Assembly: GCA_964547875.1 (NCBI GenBank)
Contig: CAZJPE010000001.1
Location: 38,535-102,534 of the forward strand
Source of the DNA: Candidatus Woesearchaeota archaeon
GTDB taxonomy: Archaea > Nanobdellota > Nanobdellia > Pacearchaeales > GW2011-AR1
Length of the DNA: 64,000 bases
Reading direction: 5' to 3'
Of the stretch, positions 44,751-64,000 are shown one piece after another. The notes below the pieces were generated by a model. That model saw only the letters and a program-made list of their open reading frames with translations. It did no database searches and was not told the origin of the DNA. The position numbers were made by a program, and so were the translations under genes. The stretch's first letter is position 1; each line of letters starts with the position of its first letter.

Positions 44751-47700
44751 ATGACAGAAGAAAATAACGAAAAGAAAATTGACGAAGCGATTGAGGAAAA
44801 GGAAAGAGAGAGAAGGAAGAAGGACATGATTGAGAATGGCGTTCAGGGAACTGAAATAGTTGAGGAGATGGAAAAATCTTACATTGATTATGCGATGTCT
44901 GTGATTGTGCAAAGGGCGCTGCCTTCTGTTGAAGATGGCTTGAAACCAGTGCATAGAAGAATTTTGTATTCAATGGAGCAGCTTGGGCTTGATGCTTCAA
45001 AGCCTACAAAAAAATCTGCTACTATTGTAGGAGATGTTATTGGAAAATATCATCCTCATGGAGACATTGCTGTTTATGATGCGCTTGTTAGATTAGCGCA
45101 GGATTTTTCTTTGCGCTATCCTCTTGTGCATGGGCAAGGAAATTTTGGCTGCTTCACAGCAGATACAAAAGTTAAACTTGCTGATGGCAGAGATTTATCT
45201 TTTATTGAGTTGATTGAAGAAAACAATAATGGGAAAAGGAATTTCACATTTACAATAGATAATGGCATTGTTAAAATAGCAGAAGTAAAAAATCCTAGAA
45301 TGACTAAAAAAAATGCAGAGATTATGAAAGTTTTTCTTGATAATGGTCAGGAAATCAAATGTACATTAAATCATTTATTTATGTTAAAGGATGGAAGCTA
45401 TAAAGAAGCAAGAAATCTAAAATCTGGGGACTCGTTGATGCCTCTTTATACGAAACTATCTACTGAAACTGACAGCCTAAAGAATCCAAAAACCATTGGC
45501 TATTCGATGATATTTCAGCCAAAATTAAAATCTTGGAATTTTATTCATATATTGGCTGATGAGTGGAATTTAGATAATAAAATATATGCAGTAAATTCTG
45601 GCAGAATAAGACATCACATTGATTTTAATAAGTTAAATAATAATCCTATAAATATCAAAAGAATGCATTGGAAAGAGCATTGGCAGACACATTACAATTT
45701 AACTTCTTCAAGACATAAAAATGATTTAGATTATAGAAAGAAATTGGAAGAGGGAAGGAGAAGGTTTTGGAGCGACGCTAAAAATCGAGAAGTTTATTCT
45801 CAAAGAATGACTGAAAGAAATTTAGAGAATTGGAAAAAAAGCAGTTATAGAGAAGAAAAACGCATTCAACTTAGTGAAATTAATAAAAAATATTTTAAAG
45901 AGAATCCAGAAGCTATAGAAATAATAAGAAAAAGAGCTTCTATAACTATGAAAAAAATGTGGGAAATTCCAAGATATAAAGAACTTTTTCATGAAAAAAT
46001 TGTCGCTTCTAATAAAAATAGAAAATCAAATCTAACTGGAAAAAAGAAATTTTTAAAGATATGTAATTATTTGCTGACTAAGAATTTACCATTAACAAAA
46101 GAAAATTTTGAAAATATTAGACAAAATATTTTTGGAATAAAAAGCTTTACCAGTTGGAATCATGGAATTAAAAAACATTTTAATGGAGATAAAAATTTAA
46201 TTTTAAATGAATTAAATGGGAATCATAAGGTTGTAGATATAGAATTTATCAATCAACATACTAGCGTTTACGATCTAACAATTGATGATACGCATAATTT
46301 TGCCCTTTCGGCAGGGATTTTTGTGCATAATTCATTAGACGGAGATTCAGCTGCAGCCTATAGATATACAGAAGCACGATTGAGTAAAATCTCTCAAGAG
46401 CTTTTGGCAGACATTGACAAAGAAACTGTCAAGATGAATCCGAATTTTGATAATTCTACAAAAGAACCAGAGACATTGCCTGCTAAACTGCCTAATCTCT
46501 TACTAAATGGGGCGACTGGAATAGCAGTCGGCATGGCTACTAACATACCTCCGCATAATTTGATAGAGTTGTGCGATGCTATTATTGCGTATATTGACAA
46601 TTCAGATGTCAGTATAGATGAACTTTTGCAGATTGTTAGAGGACCTGATTTTCCAACTGGAGGACATGCAATGGGGCCTGGAATTTTAGAGATGTACAAA
46701 ACAGGAAAAGGAAGGATAGTCATGAGAGCTAGAACCTCAATAGAGGAGAAAAAGGGAAGAGAAAACATAATTGTTACAGAGATTCCTTATATGGTTAACA
46801 AGGCAGAGCTGGTTAAGGATATTGCGAGGCTTGCAAGCGAGAAGAGATTGTCTGACATTTCTGACATATGGGATGAATCTGCAAAGGGAAAGATAAGAAT
46901 TGTTATCGAATTGAAGAAAGGCGTTGATTCAAAATATACGATAAACAGATTATACAAATTGACTAATATGCAGACTAATTTTGACGCTAATGTTTTAGCC
47001 TTGGTTGGCAAACAGCCGAGAGTGCTGAATTTGAGGGATGTTATTGTTGAGTATGTTAAATACAGAAGAATGATTGTTACTAATAGAAGTAAGTTTGAAT
47101 TGAAGAAAGCAGAAGATAGATTAGAAATTGTTCTCGGATTATTGATAGCCTTAAAGAATATAGATAGCATTGTTGAGCTTATAAAAAAGAGCAAGACAGT
47201 CAGCGAAGCGCATGAAGGGCTTATGAAGAAATTTGATTTTAGCGACAGACAGGCAAGGGCTGTTTTAGAGACGAAATTGCAGCAGCTTACTTCATTAGAG
47301 CACACAAAATTAAAGGAAGAGGAGCAGAAGCTGAAAGAGACAATAGAATATCTGAAAAATGTTTTGGGCTCTGACAAAGAGATTTTGAAAATTATCAAGA
47401 AAGAGGTTAATGAGCTGAAGAAGGAATATGGAGATGAGAGGAGGACTAAGATCGTGAGAAAGATTGATGAAATTTCTGAAGGCGACTTGATTGAGAAAAA
47501 AGACGTTGTTGTTATGCTGACAAATTCTGGATATATCAAGAGAGTTGATCTTAAGACTTATAAAGAGCAGAAAAGAGGAGGGGCAGGCGTTATGGGTACG
47601 GGATTAAAGGATGATGATTTTGTGAGAAAGATGATTAGCTGTTCAACTCATGATTATTTGCTGTTCTTTACAAAAAGAGGCAGAGTTTACTGGCTTAAGG

Positions 47701-48464
47701 CGCATGACGCTCCTGCTGCAGAAAGACAGGGTAAAGGAAGAAGCATTGCAAACTTACTGAATTTAAGAGAGGAGGCAATTGCCAATGTTATGGCTATTAC
47801 TAACTTTGAATCTGGGTATTTAATGTTTGCTACAAAATTAGGAATTGTGAAGAGGCTGCCTTTAAAGGATGTTTCTAATCCCAGAAGCACGGGAGTTAGA
47901 ATAATGAATCTGCCTGCTGACGGGAGTGACGAGATAATTAATGTCAGCAGAGTAGAGGATGGGCAGGAAGTATTGATTATCACAAAGAAAGGACAGGCTA
48001 TTAGATTTAATTCCAATGATGTTAGGGCTATGGGTAGAGCGAGTTATGGAGTCAAAGGAATTGATTTAGCAAAGAATGATTTAGTTGTTTCTTTAATGGC
48101 TGTTCCTAAAGATGGAAAGACAACTGTTCTAACACTAACGGAAAAGGGATTTGGGAAGAGGTCTGATATTGTGGAATATAGAAAAACTGCGAGAGCTGGA
48201 AAGGGCGTTATTAATTTAAAGACAAATGACAAGACAGGAAGCGTTATTGCATCTGTAGCTGTGAATGACAAAGATTCTGTTATTATTACTACAACAAAAG
48301 GCAATATTATAAGAATTCCAATGAAGGACTTGAGGGTTATGGGGCGAGCAACTCAGGGAGTGAGAGCTGTAAAGCTCAAGGAAGGAGATAAGGTTGCCGA
48401 TGTTGTTCGAGTCCCTGTAATGATTGAAGACTCTCGTTTTGCTGATATGTTTAGTAATCTTTAA
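44751..48464 (+). CDS. gyrA: DNA gyrase subunit A interrupted by an in-frame intein (extein ~843 aa)
   Basis: [23 protein letters not shown], catalytic Tyr in [32 protein letters not shown]-terminal beta-pinwheel repeats. A 394-aa insertion sits between GQGNFG and SLDGDS. Confidence 0.9.
45150..46331 (+). mobile_element. Intein (394 aa) with HNH-type homing endonuclease inside gyrA
   Basis: Starts with Cys ([13 protein letters not shown], block A); block [13 protein letters not shown]-like [24 protein letters not shown]; blocks [24 protein letters not shown] followed by Ser+1. Confidence 0.85.
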
Positions 48465-50732: not shown

Positions 50733-51024
50733 ATGTTTTAAGCATAATAAAAATAAGGAGTAAAAATATAAGATAGCAGATATTATGCGTGGATGGGATA
50801 AGAAATTTAATTCTAAGAAGTAACTTCAATTTTATAGCAAAAGACTAAAATAATTTATCGGTTTGTCTTTTGCTACATCAAGAATAAAATTCTTGAGGCC
50901 ATCAAGAACAGAGTTCTTGAGGTATTCGAGAGAACAAAAAGCTTGGTTAATTATTTTGGTCTCTCTTTATAATCAAAAATTTTTATTAATAAGATTTAAA
51001 AACGCATTTACTTTTTATTTTCGT

Positions 51025-51096
51025 GCTCCAATAGTTTAGTGGCTAGAACATGCGCCTGTCACGCGCAAGGCCCGAGTTCGATTCTCGGTTGGGGCG
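51025..51096 (+). tRNA. tRNA-Asp (anticodon GTC), 72 nt, no encoded CCA
   Basis: Acceptor GCTCCAA/TTGGGGC (one G-U pair), D-arm GTTT-AGTGGCTA-GAAC, anticodon arm TGCGC-CTGTCAC-GCGCA, 4-nt variable, T-arm CCGAG-TTCGATT-CTCGG, discriminator G. Confidence 0.85.
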
Positions 51097-51131
51097 TAAT
51101 CCACCAGAACGGTTATTTGAAAGATTATTAT

Positions 51132-53532: not shown

Positions 53533-54606
53533 CTATATTTCATTTTTCTCGCGCATATAATCTATTCCTTCCCTTAAACTTACATTTATTCCATCATTTT
53601 CAAATAAACCACGAATTATTTTACCATCATGTCTAAAATGGCTGTTATCATGGGCAATATCTCCAGAATTTTCATTAAAAGAGTAATATAATAATAAGCT
53701 TTCATCATGTATATTTCCAAGCGGACTATTATCTGTATATCTCCCAGTAGTAAATAGAGAAGAAACTTCTGCATCATTTAATGAGGCGTTATAAATTCTG
53801 AATTCGTCTAAACTGCCTGGAACAGTTTGTTCTGTTTCAGTGTTCCAATCCCCAATTTTACCAGGATTAATAGCTCCCACAGCCAAGAAATTTTCAAAAT
53901 CATGAAAGTCATAAAATTCCATTCTTCTGTTTTTTCTTATAACAGCGCTATCAATTGGCTGTTTTTTACCATCTATATATATTGCAAGATAGCCCAAATT
54001 TGGTTTTGCGGTAAGAACAATGTGGTGCCATTCTCCATCTGAAATATTAATATGGCCATGCGTAGCGCCCCTTAATTCACTTCCAAATTCATCTCTTAGA
54101 TTAAAAGCAATATAATTTGTTGTCTGTCCAGTATAATCAATATGCGCGCTCACATTATCGTTTAAATATGCAGAGAACATAGTATCCGTGTCATCACCAT
54201 TTTGTGTTCCAAACGGAGTCCAAACTTCTGTTGTATTTGTCGAATTAACCCAAAAAGAAACAGTAATATTTGTAGATTCTAAATTACTTCCTAAACCTTC
54301 TATAAGTCCTGCATTAATATGCGTCTTAAAATCTCCATCAAGAAATATCCATGTTTGATTTTTCGCAATCAATTCAAAACCGCCCTCATAGAATTTAGTA
54401 AGATTATTTATTATTGCCTCTTTATAAAGAATTTTTTCTCCGTTTTCTTTAATAAAATAGATTTTAATTTTATTTATATCTTTTTCATTTTCGCCATTTT
54501 CTGAAACAGAAAAACCAGTGATTTTACTTTTTAAAAAGAGAATAATAAACCCTACTAATATTAAAATCATTAGGATTATTGTAATTAAATAGAATCTTTT
54601 ATTCAT
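53533..54606 (-). CDS. Signal-anchored LamG/ConA-like domain protein, last gene downstream of the toxin array
   Basis: N-terminal TM; HGHINISDGEWHHIVLTAKPNLGYLAIYIDGKKQ...GSLDEFRIYNASLNDAEVSSLF LamG pattern. Confidence 0.6.
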   Translation of the reverse strand: MNKRFYLITIILMILILVGFIILFLKSKITGFSVSENGENEKDINKIKIYFIKENGEKILYKEAIINNLTKFYEGGFELIAKNQTWIFLDGDFKTHINAGLIEGLGSNLESTNITVSFWVNSTNTTEVWTPFGTQNGDDTDTMFSAYLNDNVSAHIDYTGQTTNYIAFNLRDEFGSELRGATHGHINISDGEWHHIVLTAKPNLGYLAIYIDGKKQPIDSAVIRKNRRMEFYDFHDFENFLAVGAINPGKIGDWNTETEQTVPGSLDEFRIYNASLNDAEVSSLFTTGRYTDNSPLGNIHDESLLLYYSFNENSGDIAHDNSHFRHDGKIIRGLFENDGINVSLREGIDYMREKNEI

Positions 54607-54808
54607 TTTCCAAATAAATTATTTAGATTTATATATTCTTTGTCTTTTTCACAGATATTATATTCTAATGTTTATAGCAATTATATTAAGATTTTCATAA
54701 TCTAAAGAATATTTTTAAGTAGAGTTCGTCATTATAATTATCTTCTAATAAAAGAGGTGTTTAGATAAATTCATTATCTTTTTGATTTATTAGGGTTTGC
54801 ATTTTGAA

Positions 54809-55366
54809 TTAATCAATAATTAAAAAGTAAAAAATTATAGAAAGTAATATAAAAATAATTAATGGAATAATTATATAATATTTTAGCCTTGTTTTAGACA
54901 ATTTAATTAAATAAGCTCCTAAGAAAATTAAGAACAGGGGAGATAGTAAGGGCATCAAAAAGATTTGAGAATAATATAATATTCCTAATATTCCAGATAA
55001 AGGACGAAGAATGATTGGCTCAAAATAAATAATTGAGAAAAGAAAAAGAATAATAACTCCAGAAATTAGCGAAGTGATTCCCATGTGTTTTAATGATTTT
55101 TCTTCTCTTTCTTCAAATTTTATATTAGCTTTAAATTTAATAAATAAGAAAAATGTTATTATAGGTATGCTAGTTATTAGTAAATTCAAAAAATACCATT
55201 CAAATCCGCCCTCATGAGAGATTGAATTGATCCAAATAAAAAAATGTAGCATTCCAAATACTATACTCGTTATTAATAAAATCCAATATCTTATTCTAGG
55301 TAATTTTCTCTTTGGCTTAGCCATCTTAGTGCTTAGATTATTTTTATTTTTATCTCCATTTATCAT
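54809..55366 (-). CDS. Multi-TM membrane protein, candidate immunity protein for toxin 55369-56343
   Basis: 185 aa, 5-6 hydrophobic helices; starts 3 nt after the toxin stop. Confidence 0.5.
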   Translation of the reverse strand: MINGDKNKNNLSTKMAKPKRKLPRIRYWILLITSIVFGMLHFFIWINSISHEGGFEWYFLNLLITSIPIITFFLFIKFKANIKFEEREEKSLKHMGITSLISGVIILFLFSIIYFEPIILRPLSGILGILYYSQIFLMPLLSPLFLIFLGAYLIKLSKTRLKYYIIIPLIIFILLSIIFYFLIID

Positions 55367-55368
55367 CT

Positions 55369-56343
55369 TTATTTCCTACCTTCATAGGCATATATGACTC
55401 CGTCTGGCCCGGGATCTTCAGTTTTACTATAAGGTTTAGAAAACCAAGAACTAATCTGTTCTAAATATGAGTTTTTTGATAAAGAATCTATTGGTTTTGC
55501 TTCGCTATTTTCACTACTGGATTTTTCAAGCTCATCTCCAATATATTCAATTATATTGTTTTTCGTTGTTTTAATATTTTCACGTTTGAAATCAAAAATT
55601 AAATGTTTTATATGCTCCTTCTTTGTTGTTCCCCAATCAGGTCCTCCTTGATGTATTGTATCTCCAAAAACATGCAAATATCTTCCTGCTCCGTTGTCTC
55701 CTCTTCGATATGCTTGAACAAATTTCTGTGCATTTTGCCGGAGTATATTTTCCATATTTTCATTACTAATATCAGAAGCAAGGTGAAAGAATCTATGATT
55801 TTCAGTTTCGGTGTACGAGCGCAAAGGAGGAATGTCTGGTGTAATGGAATCCCATGCTAGTTTAAGCGACTCAATTCTTCCAAATCCCAGTTCTCTACTA
55901 GCGCCATATGTCCCTATAAAATGTATGTCAACTGTTGATTTTCCTGTCGGGTCTGTATATCTATACGGATTATTAAGCACATAAGAATAACAATTCAATG
56001 CCTGAGGATTATAAATATCTGGCTTGATTGTATCACATTGTGTAAACAACTTGATAAATGAACTATAATACCTCGCACCTAAATAATCTAAATCAACTAA
56101 CTTATCTCTCTCCTTGCCAGCAAACAAAAATCTACTTAATTCCAATCCAGAATAAATCTCTCCAAACGGCAAATAAAACTCTTCCTCAACAACATCTCCT
56201 GTCTGATTTGTAACTAATGTTGTGCTGCCTAAATGGTCATCATGATAAAATGTCTTTGCGCCTGAATTGTCTTTCTTCGCAATTAATTTATCATTCGCAT
56301 AATAATATGTTTCATTGAGGATAGTTCCGCTCATTATTTTCAT
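55369..56343 (-). CDS. Orphan RHS-tip toxin module (starts directly at the conserved tip, no N-terminal domain) with a C-terminal toxin domain of unknown activity
   Basis: MKIMS-GTILNETYYYANDKLIAKKDNSGAKTFYHDDHLGSTTLVTNQTGDVVEEEFYLPFGE...DLDYLGARYY...ALNCYSYVLNNPYRYTDPTGK is the RHS repeat-associated core ending; tail KPYSKTEDPGPDGVIYAYEGRK. Confidence 0.7.
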   Translation of the reverse strand: MKIMSGTILNETYYYANDKLIAKKDNSGAKTFYHDDHLGSTTLVTNQTGDVVEEEFYLPFGEIYSGLELSRFLFAGKERDKLVDLDYLGARYYSSFIKLFTQCDTIKPDIYNPQALNCYSYVLNNPYRYTDPTGKSTVDIHFIGTYGASRELGFGRIESLKLAWDSITPDIPPLRSYTETENHRFFHLASDISNENMENILRQNAQKFVQAYRRGDNGAGRYLHVFGDTIHQGGPDWGTTKKEHIKHLIFDFKRENIKTTKNNIIEYIGDELEKSSSENSEAKPIDSLSKNSYLEQISSWFSKPYSKTEDPGPDGVIYAYEGRK

Positions 56344-56352
56344 TTTAGGGTT

Positions 56353-56709
56353 TTATTTTTCATCAACTAATTTTTCTTTCTCTAATATTTCTTTTAATTC
56401 CTTCTTTAATATTGGAATATCTTCATTAATTGTCTTCCAAATTATCCCAATATCAACACCAAAATAATGATGTATCATTTTATCCCTCATCCCTACTATT
56501 TTCTTCCATTCAATATTTTTATATTTATCAATAAATTCCGATGTTAGATTTTTAGCTGCTTCGCCTATTACTTCTATTCTCCTTATAGTAGCGTCCAATA
56601 TATCTCTATTATTCTCAAAATCTCTCTTTGAAAGATTCTTTATAGATTTTTCAATAAGGGTTATATTATCAAGTATATGACTAATAAATACTAAAGGATT
56701 CTTTCTCAT
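56353..56709 (-). CDS. HepT-like (DUF86) toxin of a HepT/MNT module
   Basis: RDKMIHHY gives the Rx4HxY catalytic motif; 118 aa. Confidence 0.8.
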   Translation of the reverse strand: MRKNPLVFISHILDNITLIEKSIKNLSKRDFENNRDILDATIRRIEVIGEAAKNLTSEFIDKYKNIEWKKIVGMRDKMIHHYFGVDIGIIWKTINEDIPILKKELKEILEKEKLVDEK

Positions 56710-56987
56710 ATTATCCTAATTTCCTCTTTAAGTATAGATTTCCTTAATAATGGATTTATTCCTTTATAAGTAAGCAAATCTACTTTTTTCTTTAGTTTTC
56801 TATTTAGTTCCATTTCTAATTCTATCAAACTCAATAAGCCTCCATTGAATTCTATTAAAATATCAATATCGCTATTTTTTTTAGCCTCGCCCCTTGCATA
56901 ACTGCCAAAAATTCCTGCCTTAGGTATATGATATTTTTTTAAGGTGCCTTTAATTTTTGATTTTATCTTGCTTATTTCATTTACCAT
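56706..56987 (-). CDS. MNT minimal nucleotidyltransferase antitoxin
   Basis: GIFGSYARGEAKKNSDIDILIEF = GSxxRG...DxD nucleotidyltransferase motif; 4-nt overlap with HepT. Confidence 0.8.
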   Translation of the reverse strand: MVNEISKIKSKIKGTLKKYHIPKAGIFGSYARGEAKKNSDIDILIEFNGGLLSLIELEMELNRKLKKKVDLLTYKGINPLLRKSILKEEIRII

Positions 56988-57074
56988 ATTATCCTATGAA
57001 ATTGATATTTTTTATATCTTTGGGATTTCCCATCAGGTTGTATAAACCTAAATAAAGTAGAAGGCTCATAATAT

Positions 57075-57554
57075 CTAATTTCCAGAATTATCTTTCTTTG
57101 CAACTAATTTACCATTTGCGTAATAATAAGTTTCATTTAATATTGTTCCATTGCTGTAACGAACTTGAATGAAATTGTCACTTATCTTATTTCTAAAATC
57201 AACAAATTCATCATAGATTATGTTTCTAAATCCAAAATCATAATTTTCATTATGAAATATAAAATGCAAAGAAATTCCTTGATTTAACCAATAGATATTT
57301 TGTTCTTCGTCATAAATGTAACCACTATCAAAATTTTTATCAGAATTATTTAATCCATAAATTGAGAATGTCAAACATTCTCCTAAAATATTATTTGTTA
57401 AATTATTTGAATGACAGATTATAGTGGATTGTGAATAGAAGTCTATTGTGTCGTTCCTTTCAGAGTTCTCTATGTTGTTTTGGGCAAGTGAGAGATTTAA
57501 TAATATGAGAATTAGGAAAATTGCTAAAATTATTTTTGGTAGATTAATATTCAT
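57075..57554 (-). pseudogene. Truncated toxin gene: Sec signal peptide plus N-terminal domain, ending 20 residues into the RHS-tip motif
   Basis: MNINLPKIILAIFLILILLNLSLA signal; ends ISDNFIQVRYSNGTILNETYYYANGKLVAKKDNSGN then stop, i.e. the same tip segment other array members continue through. Confidence 0.55.
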
Positions 57555-57559
57555 TTTTA

Positions 57560-57823
57560 TTATATAATCATTAAAATTATTATTGCTATAATGATGAGAG
57601 ATATGCCTATTCCTGTAGCAGAATTTTTACTTGTTGGTGCGCCCCTAATCCATGCTTTTTTAGTTTTTATAGATTTTACGCCTCCATGTAAAAGCCATAC
57701 GCCAAATAATATTAAGATAATACTATATAAATTAACTTCTTTAAAAGAATAAGATTTTATGAATCCAATTATAAAATATATTAAGTCATATAACCAAATA
57801 AAATTACTTTTCTTTTTCACCAA
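57560..57823 (-). CDS. Small 2-TM membrane protein, candidate immunity for toxin 57827-59182 (non-ATG start)
   Basis: 87 aa; two TM helices; no ATG available near the start (TTG/GTG); starts 3 nt after the toxin stop. Confidence 0.45.
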   Translation of the reverse strand: MVKKKSNFIWLYDLIYFIIGFIKSYSFKEVNLYSIILILFGVWLLHGGVKSIKTKKAWIRGAPTSKNSATGIGISLIIIAIIILMII

Positions 57824-57826
57824 TTT

Positions 57827-59182
57827 TTATATACAGGACATTATAACCCCACATCCTCCTCTGTTGTTATTACTTCTTGACTGTTCTTTATTAGATTTTG
57901 AAGATATTGCATTATTTAAATTTCTTCCGCCTCTATTCGATTGTGAGTTAGAGTTTGTTTGTTTATTGGAAGAATCTACCGTTCCTTTAAATATAGATTC
58001 TCCAAATTCAGAATATCCAGATTGTGCTGTTTGAGATATCGCTTCGCTAAATGTAGCTTTTCCTAATTGTGAGGATGGATAAAATTGGCCAGGCGTTCTT
58101 CTTATTATGCCAGGAAGAGAACTTTGCGAGATTCTTGATGAAATTACAGAATTAAAAACGGCGGATGTTAAAATATCTCTGCCTGAAATCTCATTATACC
58201 CTCTTCCTTCCACTAAAGTCTCTTGAGCAAACTCTTGTCCAGCACCAATGCCTGCTAATGCTGTTGTTCTAATAGCAGTGCCAACACCTGCTGTTGCAAT
58301 ACTTCTAAGCCCACCACTAGCTATAGCCGCTACTGTTGTTCCAGGAGAAATTAGTATACTTGCAGCAGTCGCTCCACCAGCAATCGTTCCAGATAACACA
58401 GCTTTGCCTATATCCCCAGTTTGCTGATAAGTAATATAACCTTGGATGCCTCCTATGACTATTGCGGGCACAGCAACAACCAAGACAGGAATGTTTCCTG
58501 TCTCATCCGTATACTTATACGGATTATTCAAAACATAAGAATAACAATTCAATGCCTGTGGATTATAAATATCTGGCTTTATTGTATCACATTGAATAAA
58601 TAGACTAGCAAATGGATTATAATACCTTGCGCCCAAATAATCTAAATCAACTAACTTATCCCTTTCCTTGCCTGCAAACAAGAATCTGTTTAGTCCAAGA
58701 CCTGAAAATATCTTTCCGAACGGCTCATAGAAATTCTCTTCTACAATATTGCCAGATTGATTTGTTACTAATGTAGTGCTACCTAAATGATCTCCATGAT
58801 AATAATTCTTACTTCCAGAATTGTCTTTCTTAGCAACAAGTTTATCATTGGCATAGTAATAAGTTTCATTTAATATAGTTCCATTAGAATATCTAATTTG
58901 AATAAAATTATCAGAGATATAATAAGTAGTTGCGTTAATGCCTGTGCTATAATCATAATCTGCCTTCTTAACCCTATTTCCTTCTGCATCATAAGCATAT
59001 TGCTCTATTAATCTTCCATTTGTTGAGTTAGTTATTTTTGTTAATTGGTTAAATCCATCATAAGTATAGTTTTTATCAAATCCTGAAATGAGATTGCCAT
59101 TTGGGTCATAAGGAAAAGGAGTCCAGATAATTTCTCCTTCCTCAATATAATTATCTTCTTTCTGTATTGTTATGAGTTTCAT
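57827..59182 (-). CDS. YD-repeat/RHS-tip polymorphic toxin with glycine-zipper (membrane-active) C-terminal domain
   Basis: N-terminal MKLITIQKEDNYIEEGEIIWTPFP; YD repeats YTYDGFNQL / YAYDAEGNRV; RHS tip ...YYHGDHLGSTTLVTNQSG...DLDYLGARYY...NNPYKYTDETGN; then IPVLVVAVPAIVIGGIQG...TIAGGATAASILISPGTTVAAIASGG; tail RGGCGVIMSCI. Confidence 0.75.
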   Translation of the reverse strand: MKLITIQKEDNYIEEGEIIWTPFPYDPNGNLISGFDKNYTYDGFNQLTKITNSTNGRLIEQYAYDAEGNRVKKADYDYSTGINATTYYISDNFIQIRYSNGTILNETYYYANDKLVAKKDNSGSKNYYHGDHLGSTTLVTNQSGNIVEENFYEPFGKIFSGLGLNRFLFAGKERDKLVDLDYLGARYYNPFASLFIQCDTIKPDIYNPQALNCYSYVLNNPYKYTDETGNIPVLVVAVPAIVIGGIQGYITYQQTGDIGKAVLSGTIAGGATAASILISPGTTVAAIASGGLRSIATAGVGTAIRTTALAGIGAGQEFAQETLVEGRGYNEISGRDILTSAVFNSVISSRISQSSLPGIIRRTPGQFYPSSQLGKATFSEAISQTAQSGYSEFGESIFKGTVDSSNKQTNSNSQSNRGGRNLNNAISSKSNKEQSRSNNNRGGCGVIMSCI

Positions 59183-59691
59183 TTCTTAATATTTTTATAT
59201 TTCTTAAATAACCCTCCTACTATTAATACAACAAATATGTATTGTAAGGGATAAATTATTAAAAACGATAGAATCCCAAAAAAATCAACCAAATCTGTAT
59301 AGGAACTTGGATCATAGGGTATAGTTGATTTATTAGCCAAATAAAAGCCAATATTGTTGGCTATTTCGGCTGTTATTCCTATTGGAATCAACATAAATAC
59401 CAACACACTTAAAAATATAAAATGAAAATTATACTTTATAGGTTTCAAATAAGGTATTAAAGTTATTAGATTATGTAATAAATAAAGAGGAATTAAAACT
59501 AAAATAAAGCTTCCTAATATTATCTCTTCTAAACCACTAGAACCAAGAACAGAGAGATATATTTCACTATATTGAAATAGGTAATTTGTAATAAACCAAA
59601 CTATTGCCGTTGATAAAATGATAGAGAAAGAAAGATAAACTATCAATTTCAGCTGATTTCCTATAATATCTTTTATGTTATTTTTTTTCAT
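59179..59691 (-). CDS. Multi-TM membrane protein, candidate immunity for toxin 59693-61051
   Basis: ATG 1 nt after the toxin stop (the track extends to GTG 59700); 4-5 TM helices. Confidence 0.5.
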   Translation of the reverse strand: MKKNNIKDIIGNQLKLIVYLSFSIILSTAIVWFITNYLFQYSEIYLSVLGSSGLEEIILGSFILVLIPLYLLHNLITLIPYLKPIKYNFHFIFLSVLVFMLIPIGITAEIANNIGFYLANKSTIPYDPSSYTDLVDFFGILSFLIIYPLQYIFVVLIVGGLFKKYKNIKK

Positions 59692-59692
59692 C

Positions 59693-61051
59693 TTATGCAC
59701 AACTCATGATTTTGCCACATCCTTTATTTCTACTACCTTCAGATTTATCTTTATTATATGGTTTTTCAACTATTCTTTTATCATAGTTATATGTTTTATC
59801 TATTCCTGGAGAAATTGCCCAAGGAGATAGATCTCCCTTAGGAAAACTACTGCCTGCATTTTCTGTAGCAGTTCTTGCGAAAACATTTGAATTAGATCTA
59901 CTGCTACCTACTTTAGGGTTGAGAACATACGGCACCTTCGCTTCATTCAATTTGTTTCCTTCTGCTATAATATCATTAATAAATTCTGTATCTGTCTTTC
60001 CTTCTGGCGTATTCAATAATACATTGCTATATTCTTTAGTTCCTCCTGTTTTCTCCACATTCTTTCCAAATTGCAAAATACTATTAGGATTAAAAATTCC
60101 ATCTGAAGCATATGCCCCTAAATTGAAGTTGGTTTCTCCTCTAAAGTCTTCCGGATTATCAGGTATAACATTAAAGTAAGAATGAGTAGTATGACTTGTA
60201 ACAAAATTAGAGACCACTCTAAGAAAAAGAATATCACTATTTGCATATTGATTATTTATACTTCTTGTAACTAAATAAACCTCCTTGCCATTTGGGTCTA
60301 TGTATTTATAAGGATTGTTAAGCACATAGGCATAATGATTTAGATTTTGTGGGTTGAATATATTAGCTATCATAGAATCAGGAGAAATAAACATCCTCAT
60401 AATTGAAGCCTGATAATACCTTGCTCCATAATAATAAATATCAACTAATTTATCAAACTCTTGAGCCGTGAATAAATATCTTGAACTTTCACTTCCACTA
60501 TACACATCACCAAACGGCAAATAAAACTCTTCTTCTGTAATATTTCCTGTTTGATTAGTTACTAATGTAATAGAACCCAAGTGGTCAGAATGATAATATG
60601 TCTTTGCACCGCTATTATCTTTCTTTACAATTAATTTATCATTTGCATAGTAATATGTTTCATTTAATATTGTTCCGTTTGTATAGCGGATTTGAATGAA
60701 ATTGTCGCTAATGTAATAGGTTGTTTGATTATTTCCTGTTGTGTAATCATATTCTACTTTCTTTATTCTGTTGCCATCAGCATCATACCTATATTCTGCT
60801 ATAACATTTCCTGTGGCATTCTTCTTTCTAACTGAAGATAATTGATTGAATGGATCATACTCGTAATATTTGCCAAGTCCTTTTATTAAATTTCCATTTG
60901 CGTCATAAGTCATATCTGTGTTATAAGTTAAGAGATTTTCGTAATCTAAGGCGTATTCTAGATAGAGTTCTTCTTCGCTATTATATTTATTTTCTGATAA
61001 AAACGGCGTCCAGATTAGTATGTTATTTTTTGGGTTTGTTAGGATTTGCAT
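59693..61051 (-). CDS. YD-repeat/RHS-tip polymorphic toxin, C-terminal toxin domain of unknown activity
   Basis: N-terminal MQILTNPKNNILIWTPFL; YD repeats MTYDANGNL / YEYDPFNQL / YRYDADGNRI; RHS tip to NNPYKYIDPNGK; ~200-aa unique C-terminal domain; tail EKPYNKDKSEGSRNKGCGKIMSCA. Confidence 0.75.
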   Translation of the reverse strand: MQILTNPKNNILIWTPFLSENKYNSEEELYLEYALDYENLLTYNTDMTYDANGNLIKGLGKYYEYDPFNQLSSVRKKNATGNVIAEYRYDADGNRIKKVEYDYTTGNNQTTYYISDNFIQIRYTNGTILNETYYYANDKLIVKKDNSGAKTYYHSDHLGSITLVTNQTGNITEEEFYLPFGDVYSGSESSRYLFTAQEFDKLVDIYYYGARYYQASIMRMFISPDSMIANIFNPQNLNHYAYVLNNPYKYIDPNGKEVYLVTRSINNQYANSDILFLRVVSNFVTSHTTHSYFNVIPDNPEDFRGETNFNLGAYASDGIFNPNSILQFGKNVEKTGGTKEYSNVLLNTPEGKTDTEFINDIIAEGNKLNEAKVPYVLNPKVGSSRSNSNVFARTATENAGSSFPKGDLSPWAISPGIDKTYNYDKRIVEKPYNKDKSEGSRNKGCGKIMSCA

Positions 61052-61052
61052 T

Positions 61053-61304
61053 TTAAATAAAAGTCAGATATATTCCTAAAATGATTAAAATAATACCTAT
61101 ACAAATGCCTAATGGAGCAAAAAACTTTCTTATAATATTTGCCGCTTTATCTTCGCCAAAAATTTTTCTCCAAATAAAAGCTTTTGGGCTTTTCTTGACA
61201 TAATTCTCTAGAAACTTTTTATCTTTAATGGCTTTTGTCGCATAATAAAAGTTTATTACACCAGCTAATAAAATTAATAAAGAATAAGTGTTAAATTTAA
61301 TCAT
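61053..61304 (-). CDS. Small 2-TM membrane protein (extra/orphan immunity-like gene)
   Basis: 83 aa; sits between the barstar-like gene and the next toxin. Confidence 0.4.
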   Translation of the reverse strand: MIKFNTYSLLILLAGVINFYYATKAIKDKKFLENYVKKSPKAFIWRKIFGEDKAANIIRKFFAPLGICIGIILIILGIYLTFI

Positions 61305-61348
61305 ATTTATATTAGTTTTATTAAGTTTAAAAGTTTTTGTTTTTATTC

Positions 61349-61642
61349 TTATTTCTCAATCTTAAATTTTACATGATATTTATGATTTCTTATTATTTCA
61401 AGTATATTTTTTAAGAATTCTTCAGGCAATTCTTTTTTTGATTTATCAAAGTTTCTCCAAACTAAAATTATCTTTTCTTTGAACTCAAATTGGTATCCTC
61501 CATATAGGATATCGTCAAAAGCATCATAGTTTCTACCAAAACCTTTAAAATCATTAGTCAGCACACTTACTATCTCGTCATAAAATCCTTTTATATCATG
61601 AAAATTTTCTCCATCTATAATAAAAGTCTTTATTTTCTTCAT
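61349..61642 (-). CDS. Barstar-like RNase inhibitor (immunity protein)
   Basis: IIDGENFHDIKGFYDEIVSVL...FGRNYDAFDDIL...IILVWRNFDKSKKELPEEFLKNILEII is colinear with barstar ([21 protein letters not shown]...YGENLDALWDCL...LVLEWRQFEQSKQ). Confidence 0.8.
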   Translation of the reverse strand: MKKIKTFIIDGENFHDIKGFYDEIVSVLTNDFKGFGRNYDAFDDILYGGYQFEFKEKIILVWRNFDKSKKELPEEFLKNILEIIRNHKYHVKFKIEK

Positions 61643-62688
61643 TTCTTTTTAGAACCTCCAAAAACATTTTTAATCTTATCTACGATTTTAGTAAATGAAC
61701 TCTTTTCGTAATGCTTATCAGTATAATATGTTTCTCCGCCCTTACCAGTTATAACTCTTTCTGGATTTTTTCTACTAGTTACATCATGAGTTGTATAATA
61801 ACCTAGTTCTTGTTTTGGAAGTGCGCCCTCTACATTCTTAAATTCATGGGGTCTTAGCCCATCAGTCTTTCCACTTTGTATTTTATTAATTGTATCTTGG
61901 ACACTTTGAGGCAAATCGGATAACTTGGTTTCCTTTAATTTATCCGCGACATTTTCTGCGCCCTTCAAAGCATCTCCCACCTTCTCCCCGGTCTTAGCCA
62001 AATCAGCCACATCACTAACTCTATCAATTCCTTTAGCAACTCTAAATCCTGCCCCTAATCCAGTTACAAAAGGCAAGGCTGCTCCTGCAACATCTAAACC
62101 AAGAGCAACATAATTGGCAGAATTGTCAGGATCTTGAATAATGCTATAAATATCATATCCGATAAATCCTACATCGGCAACAGTTTCTATATAATGCCCA
62201 GTACCATCTTTGTATTTGTAGGGATTGTTTCTTGCATAATTATAACAGTTTAATTGTTGAGGATCGTAAATATCTGGCTTAATTGTATCACACTGTATAA
62301 ACAACCTCATAATAGAAGCTTGATAATACCTCGCCCCATAATAATACAAGTCAACAAGCTTATCAAACTCTTGAGCTGTGTATAAAAACCTAGATAATCC
62401 AGCTCCAGATAGTATATCGCCAAAAGGACCATAAAAGTTTTCTTCAACAATATGCCCACTCTGATTAGTAACTAAACTCGTACTACCTAAATGGTCTCCA
62501 TGATAAAATGTTTTTGCTCCTGAATTATCCTTTTTAGCAACTAATTTATCATTGGCGTAATAATATGTTTCGTTGAGAATTGTTCCGTTAGTGTTCTCAT
62601 CATTTAAAATATATTCCATATAAAATTCTTCTTGTGGCATTTGTGTCCAGATGAACTCGTTATCTTTTTCTATAATAATAGTTATCAT
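61639..62688 (-). CDS. RHS-tip polymorphic toxin with C-terminal barnase/RNase Sa-T1 family ribonuclease domain
   Basis: N-terminal MITIIIEKDNEFIWTQMP; RHS tip; C-terminal LPQSVQDTINKIQSG...FKNVEGALPKQELGYYTTHDV...ERVITGKGGETYYTDKHYEKSSFTKI aligns with RNase Sa (FQNRESVLPTQSYGYYHEYTV...RRIICGEATQEDYYTGDHYATFSLI). Confidence 0.8.
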   Translation of the reverse strand: MITIIIEKDNEFIWTQMPQEEFYMEYILNDENTNGTILNETYYYANDKLVAKKDNSGAKTFYHGDHLGSTSLVTNQSGHIVEENFYGPFGDILSGAGLSRFLYTAQEFDKLVDLYYYGARYYQASIMRLFIQCDTIKPDIYDPQQLNCYNYARNNPYKYKDGTGHYIETVADVGFIGYDIYSIIQDPDNSANYVALGLDVAGAALPFVTGLGAGFRVAKGIDRVSDVADLAKTGEKVGDALKGAENVADKLKETKLSDLPQSVQDTINKIQSGKTDGLRPHEFKNVEGALPKQELGYYTTHDVTSRKNPERVITGKGGETYYTDKHYEKSSFTKIVDKIKNVFGGSKKK

Positions 62689-63074
62689 TTTTTATCTACA
62701 TTTCTTAATTTTCTCATTAATTTAACAATTCCAAGACCTAAATAAAATCCAATTAATAAACCTGCTATTTTAATAACTAAAAAATCTCCCCAATAATATT
62801 TTAATAATTGCCAAGATATGATGGCTAGTAATATAGAAAATAACAATTCTCTTTCGTTAAGTGAGTTTTTGTTCATTTTAAAAAAGCCCCTTCCTTCTTT
62901 GGAATAGATTATCGATGTTACTAAAAATCCAAAGAATATACCGAGTATCATAATAATTGATCCAAAAATTATAATAAAGACTGGGCTACGCTTGCCTATG
63001 ATAGAGGCACCAATCGCAAGAATCAAAAAAGCAATCCCATACATTATTATTGTAACTATTTTTTCTTTATCCAT
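62685..63074 (-). CDS. 3-4 TM membrane protein, candidate immunity for toxin 63077-64000+
   Basis: The ATG (MDKEKIV...) lies 2 nt after the toxin stop; its end overlaps the next toxin start (ATGA). Confidence 0.5.
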   Translation of the reverse strand: MDKEKIVTIIMYGIAFLILAIGASIIGKRSPVFIIIFGSIIMILGIFFGFLVTSIIYSKEGRGFFKMNKNSLNERELLFSILLAIISWQLLKYYWGDFLVIKIAGLLIGFYLGLGIVKLMRKLRNVDKK

Positions 63075-63076
63075 TT

Positions 63077-64000
63077 TTATGCACAACTCATAACTTTATT
63101 GCAACCTCCATCTTGATTTTTTTCTGCTAAATTACTGCCTTTATTTATAGGTTTACTTCCATATCCATAAATTACACCATCAGGACCAGGATCTTGAGTC
63201 CTACTGAATGGTTTATTGAAGTTATATTCATTATAATAATCTTGTAACGTATTTTCTTTTATAAGTTTTGTGTTATCTAATTTCTCTTTTTCAAAATCTT
63301 CATCAGGTTCTCTATCTAATTCTCCAAAATCAAAAATAGGATATCCTTTACTCCACTGATAAGCTACTCCAACTTTTGCCAATATATTTGGATCATTAAG
63401 TCCCTGTGTAATAGGGTCGCCTTTTATAAAATTAGTAGTTATTTGGGTTGTTACAGTTTCTGTTATGATGGGGGCACCAACAGTTGCTATTGATGAACCT
63501 CCTGAAAGAATACCTGCTACAACAGTAGCTCCTGCAACTCCTCCTCCAGCCAAACCTGCGACAGCGGAATCTGTAATGTCCACCCAAGTAGCTTGCGGAT
63601 TATTTGCTGTATTAATGGCTCCTATAATCGCTCCAATGACAGCTCCCCCAACAACTATACTCGCCACAGTAATTGTTATCGGGTCTATTAAATTTCCACT
63701 CTCATCAGTATATTTGTAGGGATTATTCAAGACATAACTATAACAATTCAATGCCTGAGGATTATAAATATCTGGCTTAATTGTATCGCATTGAGTGAAT
63801 AATCTCATAATTGACGCTTGATAGTAACGAGCGCCATAATAATACAAATCAATAGCCTTGTCCAATTCCTTAGCTGTATAGAGGAATCTGCTTAATTCAG
63901 GCCCTATAAAGATATCTCCGAATGGACCATAGAAATTCTCTTCTGTTATATTCCCTGTCTGATTTGTCACAAGCGTTGTTGAACCAAGATGATCTGGATG
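63077..64000 (-). CDS. RHS-tip polymorphic toxin with glycine-zipper C-terminal domain (5' part outside window)
   Basis: Frame open to the window edge (…HPDHLGSTTLVTNQTGN…); RHS tip to NNPYKYTDESGN; ITITVASIVVGGAVIGAIIGAI...VAGLAGGGVAGATVVAGILSGG; tail KPFSRTQDPGPDGVIYGYGSK...GGCNKVMSCA. Confidence 0.7.
   Translation of the reverse strand, partial: HPDHLGSTTLVTNQTGNITEENFYGPFGDIFIGPELSRFLYTAKELDKAIDLYYYGARYYQASIMRLFTQCDTIKPDIYNPQALNCYSYVLNNPYKYTDESGNLIDPITITVASIVVGGAVIGAIIGAINTANNPQATWVDITDSAVAGLAGGGVAGATVVAGILSGGSSIATVGAPIITETVTTQITTNFIKGDPITQGLNDPNILAKVGVAYQWSKGYPIFDFGELDREPDEDFEKEKLDNTKLIKENTLQDYYNEYNFNKPFSRTQDPGPDGVIYGYGSKPINKGSNLAEKNQDGGCNKVMSCA

Follow-up and report, generated by a model that had tools for sequence, protein, structure and literature searches.

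Orphan arrays of Rhs and contact-dependent inhibition (CDI) systems are usually regarded as silent stores of spare tips that are reshuffled by homologous recombination. In the closest described loci, those of the Rhs/WapA and TcB-TcC kinds, a main gene is accompanied by tandem cassettes, each made of a core tip, a variable toxin and a small immunity gene (Zhang et al. 2012, PMC3482391); the cassettes share a conserved, recombination-competent block, and truncated or dead cassettes accumulate distally. In archaea, polymorphic-toxin systems have been predicted, without experimental characterization (PMC8416519). Here, we describe a 64,000-nucleotide stretch of contig CAZJPE010000001.1 (assembly GCA_964547875.1, Candidatus Woesearchaeota archaeon; hereafter the window), in which an MNT-HepT toxin-antitoxin unit sits among such cassettes, between a 159-aa open reading frame (ORF) and a 324-aa orphan module. 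We read this locus as a recombination scar in an archaeal polymorphic-toxin array that carries a recurrent toxin-antitoxin passenger, and the region is likely to be the decaying distal end of an Rhs/YD cassette array in which the unit has come to lie between a dead cassette and one cut at its 5' end.

The array shares with the bacterial loci the main gene, the tandem cassettes with their common block and the distal accumulation of broken copies, but it differs from them in several respects. Its host is apparently a DPANN archaeon; two genes stand in place of one main gene, a TcB-like one for a 1520-aa protein and one for a 1122-aa protein with its own signal or transmembrane (TM) segment and a LamG domain; orphans start at ATGs of their own, with a leader that is conserved; a second class of cassettes carries a Sec-type signal peptide and a novel N-terminal domain (N-domain); the core ends in NNPYKYxDxxG and not in the canonical PxxxxDPxGL; and a toxin-antitoxin module is interleaved among the cassettes. 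The module itself belongs to the HepT/MntA (type VII) systems, which are defined by the motifs GSX10DXD in MNT and RX4HXY in HepT (Yao et al. 2020, PMC7641770). HepT is an RNase toxin that MNT neutralizes enzymatically within the producing cell, by AMPylating the tyrosine of the motif, and HepT/MNT is among the most abundant toxin-antitoxin families of archaea (PMC7641770). The pair in the window agrees with these systems in its PF01909/PF01934 composition, in both motifs, in the overlap of two small genes with MNT first and in being under purifying selection. While the proteins are ordinary, their context is unusual, with a 3'-truncated Rhs tip on one side, a 5'-truncated Rhs tip on the other and a downstream ORF that starts within the tail of the unit.

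MNT, an MntA-type antitoxin of 93 aa, is encoded at 56706..56987 on the minus strand (PF01909/PF18765, E 2e-16 to 2e-17) and the 118-aa HepT toxin at 56353..56709 on the same strand (PF01934, E 3.6e-27). The genes overlap by 4 nt, and these Pfam matches bear out the pair that a preliminary description, made from the sequence alone, had placed between the two flanking ORFs. MNT has the GS-X10-DXD motif (GSYARGEAKKNSDID) and HepT has the RX4HXY motif (RDKMIHHY). PADLOC reported MNT only, as a candidate system (PDC-S09), and left the other proteins without a match; no second MNT or HepT copy was found within the 64-kb window. The closest HepT (84%), again accompanied by a 93-aa MNT, comes from a different contig of this metagenome (L021), where it lies between methyltransferase and radical-SAM genes. 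By blastn and global alignment, a 688-bp block (56337..57024, minus strand) that comprises the upstream region, both genes and the 3' tail of HepT is 85% identical over 690 aligned positions to L021 7686-8373, the homology beginning 37 nt upstream of the MNT ATG and ending after the HepT stop, within the ATGAAAATAATG of the following orphan. For a time, the stretch from FIQPD, in the flanking remnant described below, to the MNT ATG was considered a decayed Rhs core (NPKDIKNINF resembling NPQSLNRYSY), which was rejected because homology to L021, from 57024 downwards, identifies it as upstream sequence of the toxin-antitoxin unit.

Compared with L021 and with a groundwater relative, L025, MNT and HepT have dN/dS values of 0.10-0.17 at dS values of 0.6-0.9, which indicates purifying selection on the pair and a duplication that is not recent. 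With both catalytic motifs intact and dN/dS low, the pair looks functional. A AAAGATATAAAAAAT box at positions -34 to -20 relative to the MNT start codon (57007..57021, minus strand) is conserved in the window, L021 and L025 and is a candidate archaeal promoter (TATA box with transcription factor B recognition element, BRE) of a leaderless MNT-HepT transcript.

On the upstream side, the unit adjoins the 159-aa ORF (57075..57554, minus strand), which ends in ...NGTILNETYYYANGKLVAKKDNSGN and a stop. It consists of a putative signal peptide (MNINLPKIILAIFLILILLNLSLA, followed by QNN), an N-domain that extends to about residue 123 and 36 aa of the conserved YD/tip block. Ten homologues of the N-domain (residues 1-123) were found by phmmer (E 1e-8 to 7e-37), and their alignment (A2) has 16 invariant columns, including two Cys. 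The domain had no match in Pfam or NCBIfam. Its AlphaFold2 (AF2) model (window 57186-57554, about 100 aa; predicted local distance difference test score, pLDDT, 80) has long beta-hairpins and a C-terminal helix, and a Foldseek comparison with the PDB gave no significant match (best E 0.09, TM score 0.31).

Intact members of this family have 391-610 aa and are composed of a signal peptide, the N-domain of about 100 aa, none to two YD repeats, an Rhs core and a toxin, and they are followed by an immunity gene. In P0008 (520 aa), located close to where an Rhs array of a Nanoarchaeota metagenome-assembled genome ends (L008/L009/L020), the toxin is a colicin D and the next gene encodes a colicin-immunity protein; P0011 and the L016 gene end in an RNase and are followed by barstar; and in L014/L015 two genes of the signal-peptide family stand in tandem. 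Among the intact family genes examined in relatives, none had MNT/HepT next to it.

Residues 1-187 of P0008 match the 159-aa ORF with 60% identity (tblastn, E 4e-69), and its residues 250-264 (RYYQASNLFRFIQPD) align, in another frame, to RYYEPSTLFRFIQPD right after the stop of the ORF (80%, E 8e-6). This remnant of an Rhs core (57032..57076, minus strand), just upstream of MNT, is identical to the intact L008 gene at 37/45 nt (82%) and matches TIGR03696 weakly (E 0.037). The roughly 62 codons that would correspond to P0008 residues 188-249 are absent between ...DNSGN and the core remnant, and the sequence ends within the core at ...FIQPDGK. With a stop after DNSGN, a loss of about 62 codons, a core in another frame and neither toxin nor immunity gene behind it, the ORF is the 5' remnant (a pseudogene) of a gene for a signal peptide, N-domain, Rhs tip and toxin, as the preliminary description had suspected. 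Other shortened homologues end elsewhere in the tip: P0002 has 182 aa and continues in another frame, and P0003 has 209 aa and stops at ...ESRVLNI.

On the downstream side lies orphan 4, a 324-aa module (55369..56343, minus strand) whose Rhs tip begins at about 56328. The protein begins MKIMSGTILNETYYYANDKLIAKKDNSGAKTFYH, of which MKIM derives from the tail of the HepT unit, and Rhs homology starts only at codon 5-6, with (S)GTILNE. The HepT TAA (56353-56355) and the orphan 4 ATG (56341-56343) stand in the same frame, three codons apart (AAC CCT AAA; 9 nt), and L021 has a sense codon at the position equivalent to the TAA, its HepT being 8 codons longer (...RRNLKNKKE). The idea that the orphan keeps an ATG of its own was therefore not borne out: since the ATGAAAATAATG start lies within the block homologous to the HepT tail of L021 and Rhs homology sets in later, the start codon of orphan 4 was donated by the toxin-antitoxin unit. 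The rest of the module is in order. Its Rhs core (residues 57-134) matches TIGR03696 over profile positions 1-75 of 76 (E 2.4e-15, 56.8 bits at a cutoff of 32.5), the core sequence RYYSSFIKLFTQCDTIKPD differs from the core remnant of the upstream fragment, and its tip is 78% identical to that of orphan 3, further up the array, over 139 aa of protein. The 190-aa C-terminal domain had no homologue among 5.8 billion clusters, and its single-sequence AF2 model has a pLDDT of 44. Starting 2 nt after the orphan 4 stop, an ORF of 185 aa (54809..55366, minus strand) is very hydrophobic, with several membrane-spanning segments as read by eye, and had no Pfam or PADLOC match; from its position, we infer that it is the immunity gene of orphan 4.

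The two flanks were brought together in the preliminary description by a 23-codon segment, GTILNETYYYAN.KL.AKKDNSG, that occurs in both, and the sequences quoted there for the end of the fragment and the start of orphan 4 are correct. Copy 1 (GTILNETYYYANGKLVAKKDNSG) lies at 57081..57149 and copy 2 at 56260..56328, both on the minus strand, and they are identical at 56/69 nt (81%), the codon differences being 10 synonymous and 2 non-synonymous, just as described. The segment is nevertheless no special mark of the two flanks. It occurs in 5/5 Rhs modules of the window with all ten pairwise identities at 77-87%, so that the pair formed by the fragment and orphan 4 is no closer than other pairs and the repeat belongs to the whole array, and the fragment shares not 23 but 36 aa (ISDNFIQVRYSNGTILNETYYYANGKLVAKKDNSGN) with other modules, at 92% identity to orphan 3. 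What recurs on both flanks is simply the tip block that all cassettes have in common. The same comparison upholds the view that the copies are not a target-site duplication, and neither inverted repeats nor a transposase were seen in the 50-64 kb region.

In summary of the layout, one cassette (signal peptide, N-domain, tip, toxin) is dead, the MNT-HepT unit occupies the site of its toxin and immunity gene together with that of the leader of the next cassette, and this next cassette, consisting of orphan 4 and the putative immunity gene, has lost its 5' end up to a point just within the tip block and is otherwise intact. The proposal that the arrangement arose by recombination between distinct cassettes holds insofar as the pair lies at the junction of two different cassettes. 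It does not hold insofar as the flanks were taken for parts of one recombination product or halves of one gene, as the fragment still has a remnant of a core of its own, one of the signal-peptide type, and orphan 4 is thus not its missing C-terminal half.

Comparable junctions were found in other loci. Directly after HepT, L021 has AATGATAAATTAGTTGCTAAA, which is identical over its 21 nt to the tip codons for NDKLVAK at window 62533-62553; this 21-mer matches three other tips in the window with 3 mismatches each, against a chance expectation of 0.03, and the longest exact match in controls was 16 nt (3000 flank shuffles) or 15 nt (177 real control windows of L021). Nothing comparable was seen in the flanks of three other HepT loci outside Rhs contexts. 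In L025/26/27 (Hainich groundwater; HepT 82%), an orphan tip cut at ...FFLLFGDI and a stop is followed by 36 nt, MNT, HepT, a tip relic (YISDNFIQVRITNNTIYNETYYYANDKLVAKKD...) and unrelated genes. In L032 (HepT 62%), the order is the end of a toxin, an immunity gene, a tip cut at ...NQSGDVVN and a stop, MNT, HepT and the relic FIQLLYSNGTILNYTYYYAN, after which come a helix-turn-helix nucleotidyltransferase (HTH-NTase) gene, a HEPN gene and then a further tip. In L004/L005 (HepT 45%, MNT 38%), MNT and HepT follow the fragment P0003 and precede a mini-fragment of 57 aa that combines a signal peptide with tip sequence. Intact frames in such an arrangement would speak for ordinary separate genes; the order tip, MNT, HepT, tip does recur in these relatives, but the flanking frames are cut at different points.

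Some details of these loci deserve mention in their own right. In L004/L005, MNT-HepT and the mini-fragment lie between the two copies of a 77-nt direct repeat (L004 2971-3047 and 3894-3970, equal to L005 10765-10841 and 11688-11764), which are 74% identical and share an exact core of 18 nt, CTTTTTGTCTGGAAGATA; in the mini-fragment a different signal peptide is fused straight to YHPDHLGSTSLVTNQSGDIVEEE. A winged-HTH-NTase fusion followed by a HEPN protein stands after the tip relic in L032 (2064-3217) and near the HepT pair in L033 (123-1203), and L025/L026 has the HTH-NTase alone at a contig end (L026 715-1185); NTase/HEPN modules seem to cluster.

In a neighbor-joining (NJ) tree of HepT, the window, L021, L025 and P0020 form a tight clade, and L032 and L004 (the latter used as outgroup) stand elsewhere. 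Within the tight clade, the right junctions are nested: the tip begins at YISDNFIQ in L025, 30 nt further on in the window and 75 nt further on in L021, which is consistent with one ancestral junction that has since been eroded. The HepT-tip junction at (Y)ISDNFIQ in L025 and L032 is the point at which the N-domain meets the tip in the fragment of the window, and this point is apparently a natural module boundary. The examined tree neighbors of L032 and L004 (L033, L028 and L023) have contexts other than Rhs; since the Rhs-flanked HepTs thus belong to separate lineages whose examined nearest relatives are not Rhs-flanked, the association arose more than once, probably at least three times (in the window clade, L032 and L004/L005). 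Orthology of the pairs in the window and in L004/L005 was considered and is unlikely, with HepT at 45% and MNT at 38% identity, more than 120 database clusters closer and L004 well separated in the tree.

These observations lead us to propose that the unit entered the array, or was retained in it, through recombination in or beside the tip repeats, which would have replaced the toxin and immunity gene upstream and the leader downstream, and that it now behaves as one more cassette. Alternatively, the unit may have brought along a left arm, with the FIQPD remnant as part of it, when it was imported. By analogy, it may have been kept among direct repeats of 80-90% identity because repeat-mediated deletion would free HepT. 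Its promoter probably transcribes orphan 4 and the putative immunity gene as well.

Four other explanations have to be set against this account. One of them, suggested by the same 23 codons standing in the same orientation on both flanks of the unit, with a fragment that lacks a toxin and an orphan that lacks a leader, is that HepT/MNT inserted into a single gene for a signal peptide, tip and toxin and duplicated its target, the 69 nt having since diverged to 81%. This is highly improbable, and it is largely refuted by the core remnant of the fragment, which runs into LFRFIQPD, of the signal-peptide type, where orphan 4 has KLFTQCD. The overlap between the two halves would, moreover, be about 120 codons and not 23, the segment is equally similar across all five modules, and the orphan 4 tip finds a 78% identical counterpart in orphan 3. 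It is also rather improbable, if less so, that we are looking at ordinary separate genes, with the 159-aa ORF coding for a small secreted protein and fragment, MNT, HepT and orphan forming a normal conserved operon. The tight packing on one strand, the good conservation of the N-domain (16 invariant columns with two Cys, and an AF2 pLDDT of 80) and the recurrence in L004/L005 of a fragment homologue followed by MNT-HepT would fit such an operon. Its supposed first gene, however, ends at differing points of the tip in different homologues (159, 182 and 209 aa, the one in L006 continuing in another frame), is followed in the window by a frameshifted core remnant and has intact relatives of 391-610 aa with a toxin and an immunity gene, while the MNT and HepT of L004 are just 38% and 45% identical to those of the window, with more than 120 database clusters closer.

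HepT might also be imagined as an Rhs payload once fused to the core of the fragment, with MNT as its immunity protein. The unit does lie roughly where a toxin and immunity pair would follow the core, HepT and orphan 4 share a frame, and nucleases are frequent as Rhs payloads, as are seen here in the RNase of orphan 1 and the colicin D of P0008. Nevertheless, we give this idea very little credence, as the antitoxin comes first, in the reverse of the toxin-immunity order; the unit starts at the MNT ATG, unfused to the core, with 37 nt of conserved upstream sequence of its own; it also stands alone in housekeeping contexts; and MNT acts enzymatically on HepT inside the producing cell (PMC7641770). 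No HepT domain fused in frame after the end motif of an Rhs core was found in the loci examined. The more serious objection is that array ends are gene graveyards in which small mobile modules of any kind come to rest, and that neither mechanism nor selection ties HepT/MNT to the tips. HepT/MNT is very abundant in archaea (PMC7641770), its close relatives occur in many unrelated contexts, the left junctions are different at each locus, and other NTase/HEPN modules cluster nearby in L032 and L033. Against such an accident, Rhs tips stand on either side of the unit in four of the seven HepT contexts examined and a fifth has retained a tip relic, even though an Rhs array makes up about 1% of such a genome; moreover, L025 and L032, whose HepTs are of different lineages, have their right junctions at one and the same boundary, (Y)ISDNFIQ. 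We consider an accidental passenger unlikely, on the strength of only seven HepT contexts.

Several points weigh against a recombination scar at the end of a decaying array, the reading that we prefer. Neither a recombinase nor inverted repeats or a target duplication were found in the 50-64 kb region, and no integrase-like Pfam match was present among the neighboring ORFs, no dedicated search for attC structures having been made. The left junctions differ at every locus (FIQPDGK, FGDI, GDVVN), a single event followed by decay is indistinguishable from several events, and RYYEPSTLFRFIQPD could have come as the left arm of the unit and not as the core of the resident gene. Nor is there a direct sign that the unit and its right arm moved together; co-inheritance of the two was considered and found unsupported, as the first 60 nt of the orphan 4 tip are 78% identical to the HepT-side relic of L025, against 92% to the left tip of L025. 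The survey comprised seven HepT contexts and a quick NJ tree of a protein of about 115 aa; addiction as a stabilizing force and transcription from the unit's promoter into orphan 4 are drawn by analogy and not observed; and L021 and the window, with a tetranucleotide correlation of r = 0.985, may or may not belong to one genome.

A wider proposal can be made, if only tentatively and with more doubt than belief: HEPN/MNT modules may be regular cassettes of archaeal Rhs arrays, placed at the module boundary upstream of the tip, in the position of the leader or N-domain, where they would spread by using tip repeats as homology arms, protect the distal array through addiction and lend a promoter and a start codon to an otherwise silent orphan toxin and immunity pair. 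Toxin-antitoxin cassettes in chromosomal integron and superintegron arrays reportedly counteract the repeat-mediated loss of cassettes. The likeness lies in an addiction module within a long array of directly repeated, recombination-prone cassettes; the difference is that no integrase, attC or attI is present here (attC structure was not specifically searched), that the repeats are coding Rhs tips and that stabilization is an analogy. A literature search turned up no study in which a toxin-antitoxin module lies within an Rhs or CDI orphan array, and we could not find a description of such a module recurrently interleaved between Rhs tip fragments and donating the start codon of an orphan. If the association is real, it would link two kinds of conflict systems, toxin-antitoxin modules could stabilize, and possibly switch on, parts of a polymorphic-toxin arsenal, and tip repeats could act as a vehicle for toxin-antitoxin mobility. 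The locus also documents concrete polymorphic-toxin cassettes of archaea, including a secreted class with a new N-domain.

As the preliminary description had supposed, the region is an array of orphan modules, namely the distal part of an Rhs orphan array. The minus-strand end of the window is a tightly packed, co-directional gene array whose upstream part (57560..63970, minus strand) comprises the C terminus of the 1122-aa main Rhs protein and three orphan/immunity cassettes. It extends past the window end, on the 290-kb parent contig (ena:ERZ27284378:k139_317676; loci L001 and L002), into the TcB-like gene at the start of the array, whose 1520-aa product has TcdB_toxin_midN, FG-GAP, RHS repeats and DUF6443 and which overlaps the gene for the 1122-aa protein by 4 nt. 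The latter protein has an N-terminal signal or TM segment, a LamG domain, few YD repeats (about 4), an Rhs core and a toxin. A full-length main gene thus lies upstream on the same strand, and the 1122-aa protein ends in the tip block common to the orphans. The main gene is followed by an immunity-like ORF (62685-63086), orphan 1 (61639-62688), a PF00545 RNase whose pairing with a barstar (61349-61642) was confirmed, orphan 2 (59693-61051) with a membrane ORF and orphan 3 (57827-59182) with an 87-aa ORF. Beyond the last immunity gene, at the distal end of the array, translation of the repeat family D6 compared with the intact leaders of orphans 1-3 and L016 revealed the dead leader of a further orphan (54690..54801, minus strand; MQTLINQKDNEFI, a stop, TPLLLEDNYNDELYL..., then a frameshift). 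Repeat families D1-D5 connect the modules of the array. In an alignment of six modules, conservation extends to NNPY[KR]YTDxxG and divergence is total thereafter, and the canonical PxxxxDPxGL wording is not literally matched.

The host, a low-GC archaeon with an apparently tiny genome, most likely belongs to the DPANN group: relatives are labeled 'Nanoarchaeota archaeon' by NCBI, and related contigs carry archaeal genes such as STT3 and prefoldin. The junction between the fragment and MNT (the left junction) is not an assembly artefact, because L003, an independent Logan assembly (SRR8863434), is 100% identical to window 56770-58543. The right junction, from HepT to orphan 4, lies outside L003; it has the support of the 290-kb contig, of a second large contig with reportedly the same arrangement and of the analogous junctions in relatives.

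The split of the main locus in two falls at L001 1685-9612, just past window position 64000, where the 1520-aa protein has an N-terminal signal-like segment. It amounts to a TcB/TcC-like two-gene layout in an apparent DPANN archaeon, and the short orphans might each pair with a single shell protein. Orphans 1-3 (starts at 62688, 61051 and 59182) each begin with an ATG of their own, which abuts or overlaps the 3' end of the gene before it. Their leader, M..[IL]T..K.N..IWTP, is conserved and also occurs in orphans of other genomes (L016 3716-; P0004). They resemble translationally coupled mini-genes more than silent, promoterless tips. Three otherwise unrelated toxin domains share the C-terminal sequence GC[GN][KV][IVT]MSC[AIL] before the stop (GGCNKVMSCA, GCGKIMSCA and GGCGVIMSCI), which ends toxins at window 63077-63106, 59693-59722 and 57827-57856 and at the toxin end of L016 (about 1042-1071) and which occurs alone, as a 33-aa ORF after an immunity gene, at L004 1213-1314; it could be a 3' boundary of cassettes, serving as a recombination arm, or a processing or lipidation signal.

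Just past the array end, 53533-54606 (minus strand) encodes a 357-aa protein with an N-terminal TM or signal segment and a domain, Laminin_G_3, of a type that also occurs in the main Rhs protein of 1122 aa; the smaller protein may be a remnant of the system or an accessory to it. Elsewhere in the window, a tRNA-Asp (51024-51097, plus strand) lies 3.6 kb past the distal end of the array, and a 1237-aa GyrA homologue with an intein (PF14890) is encoded at 44751-48464 on the plus strand.

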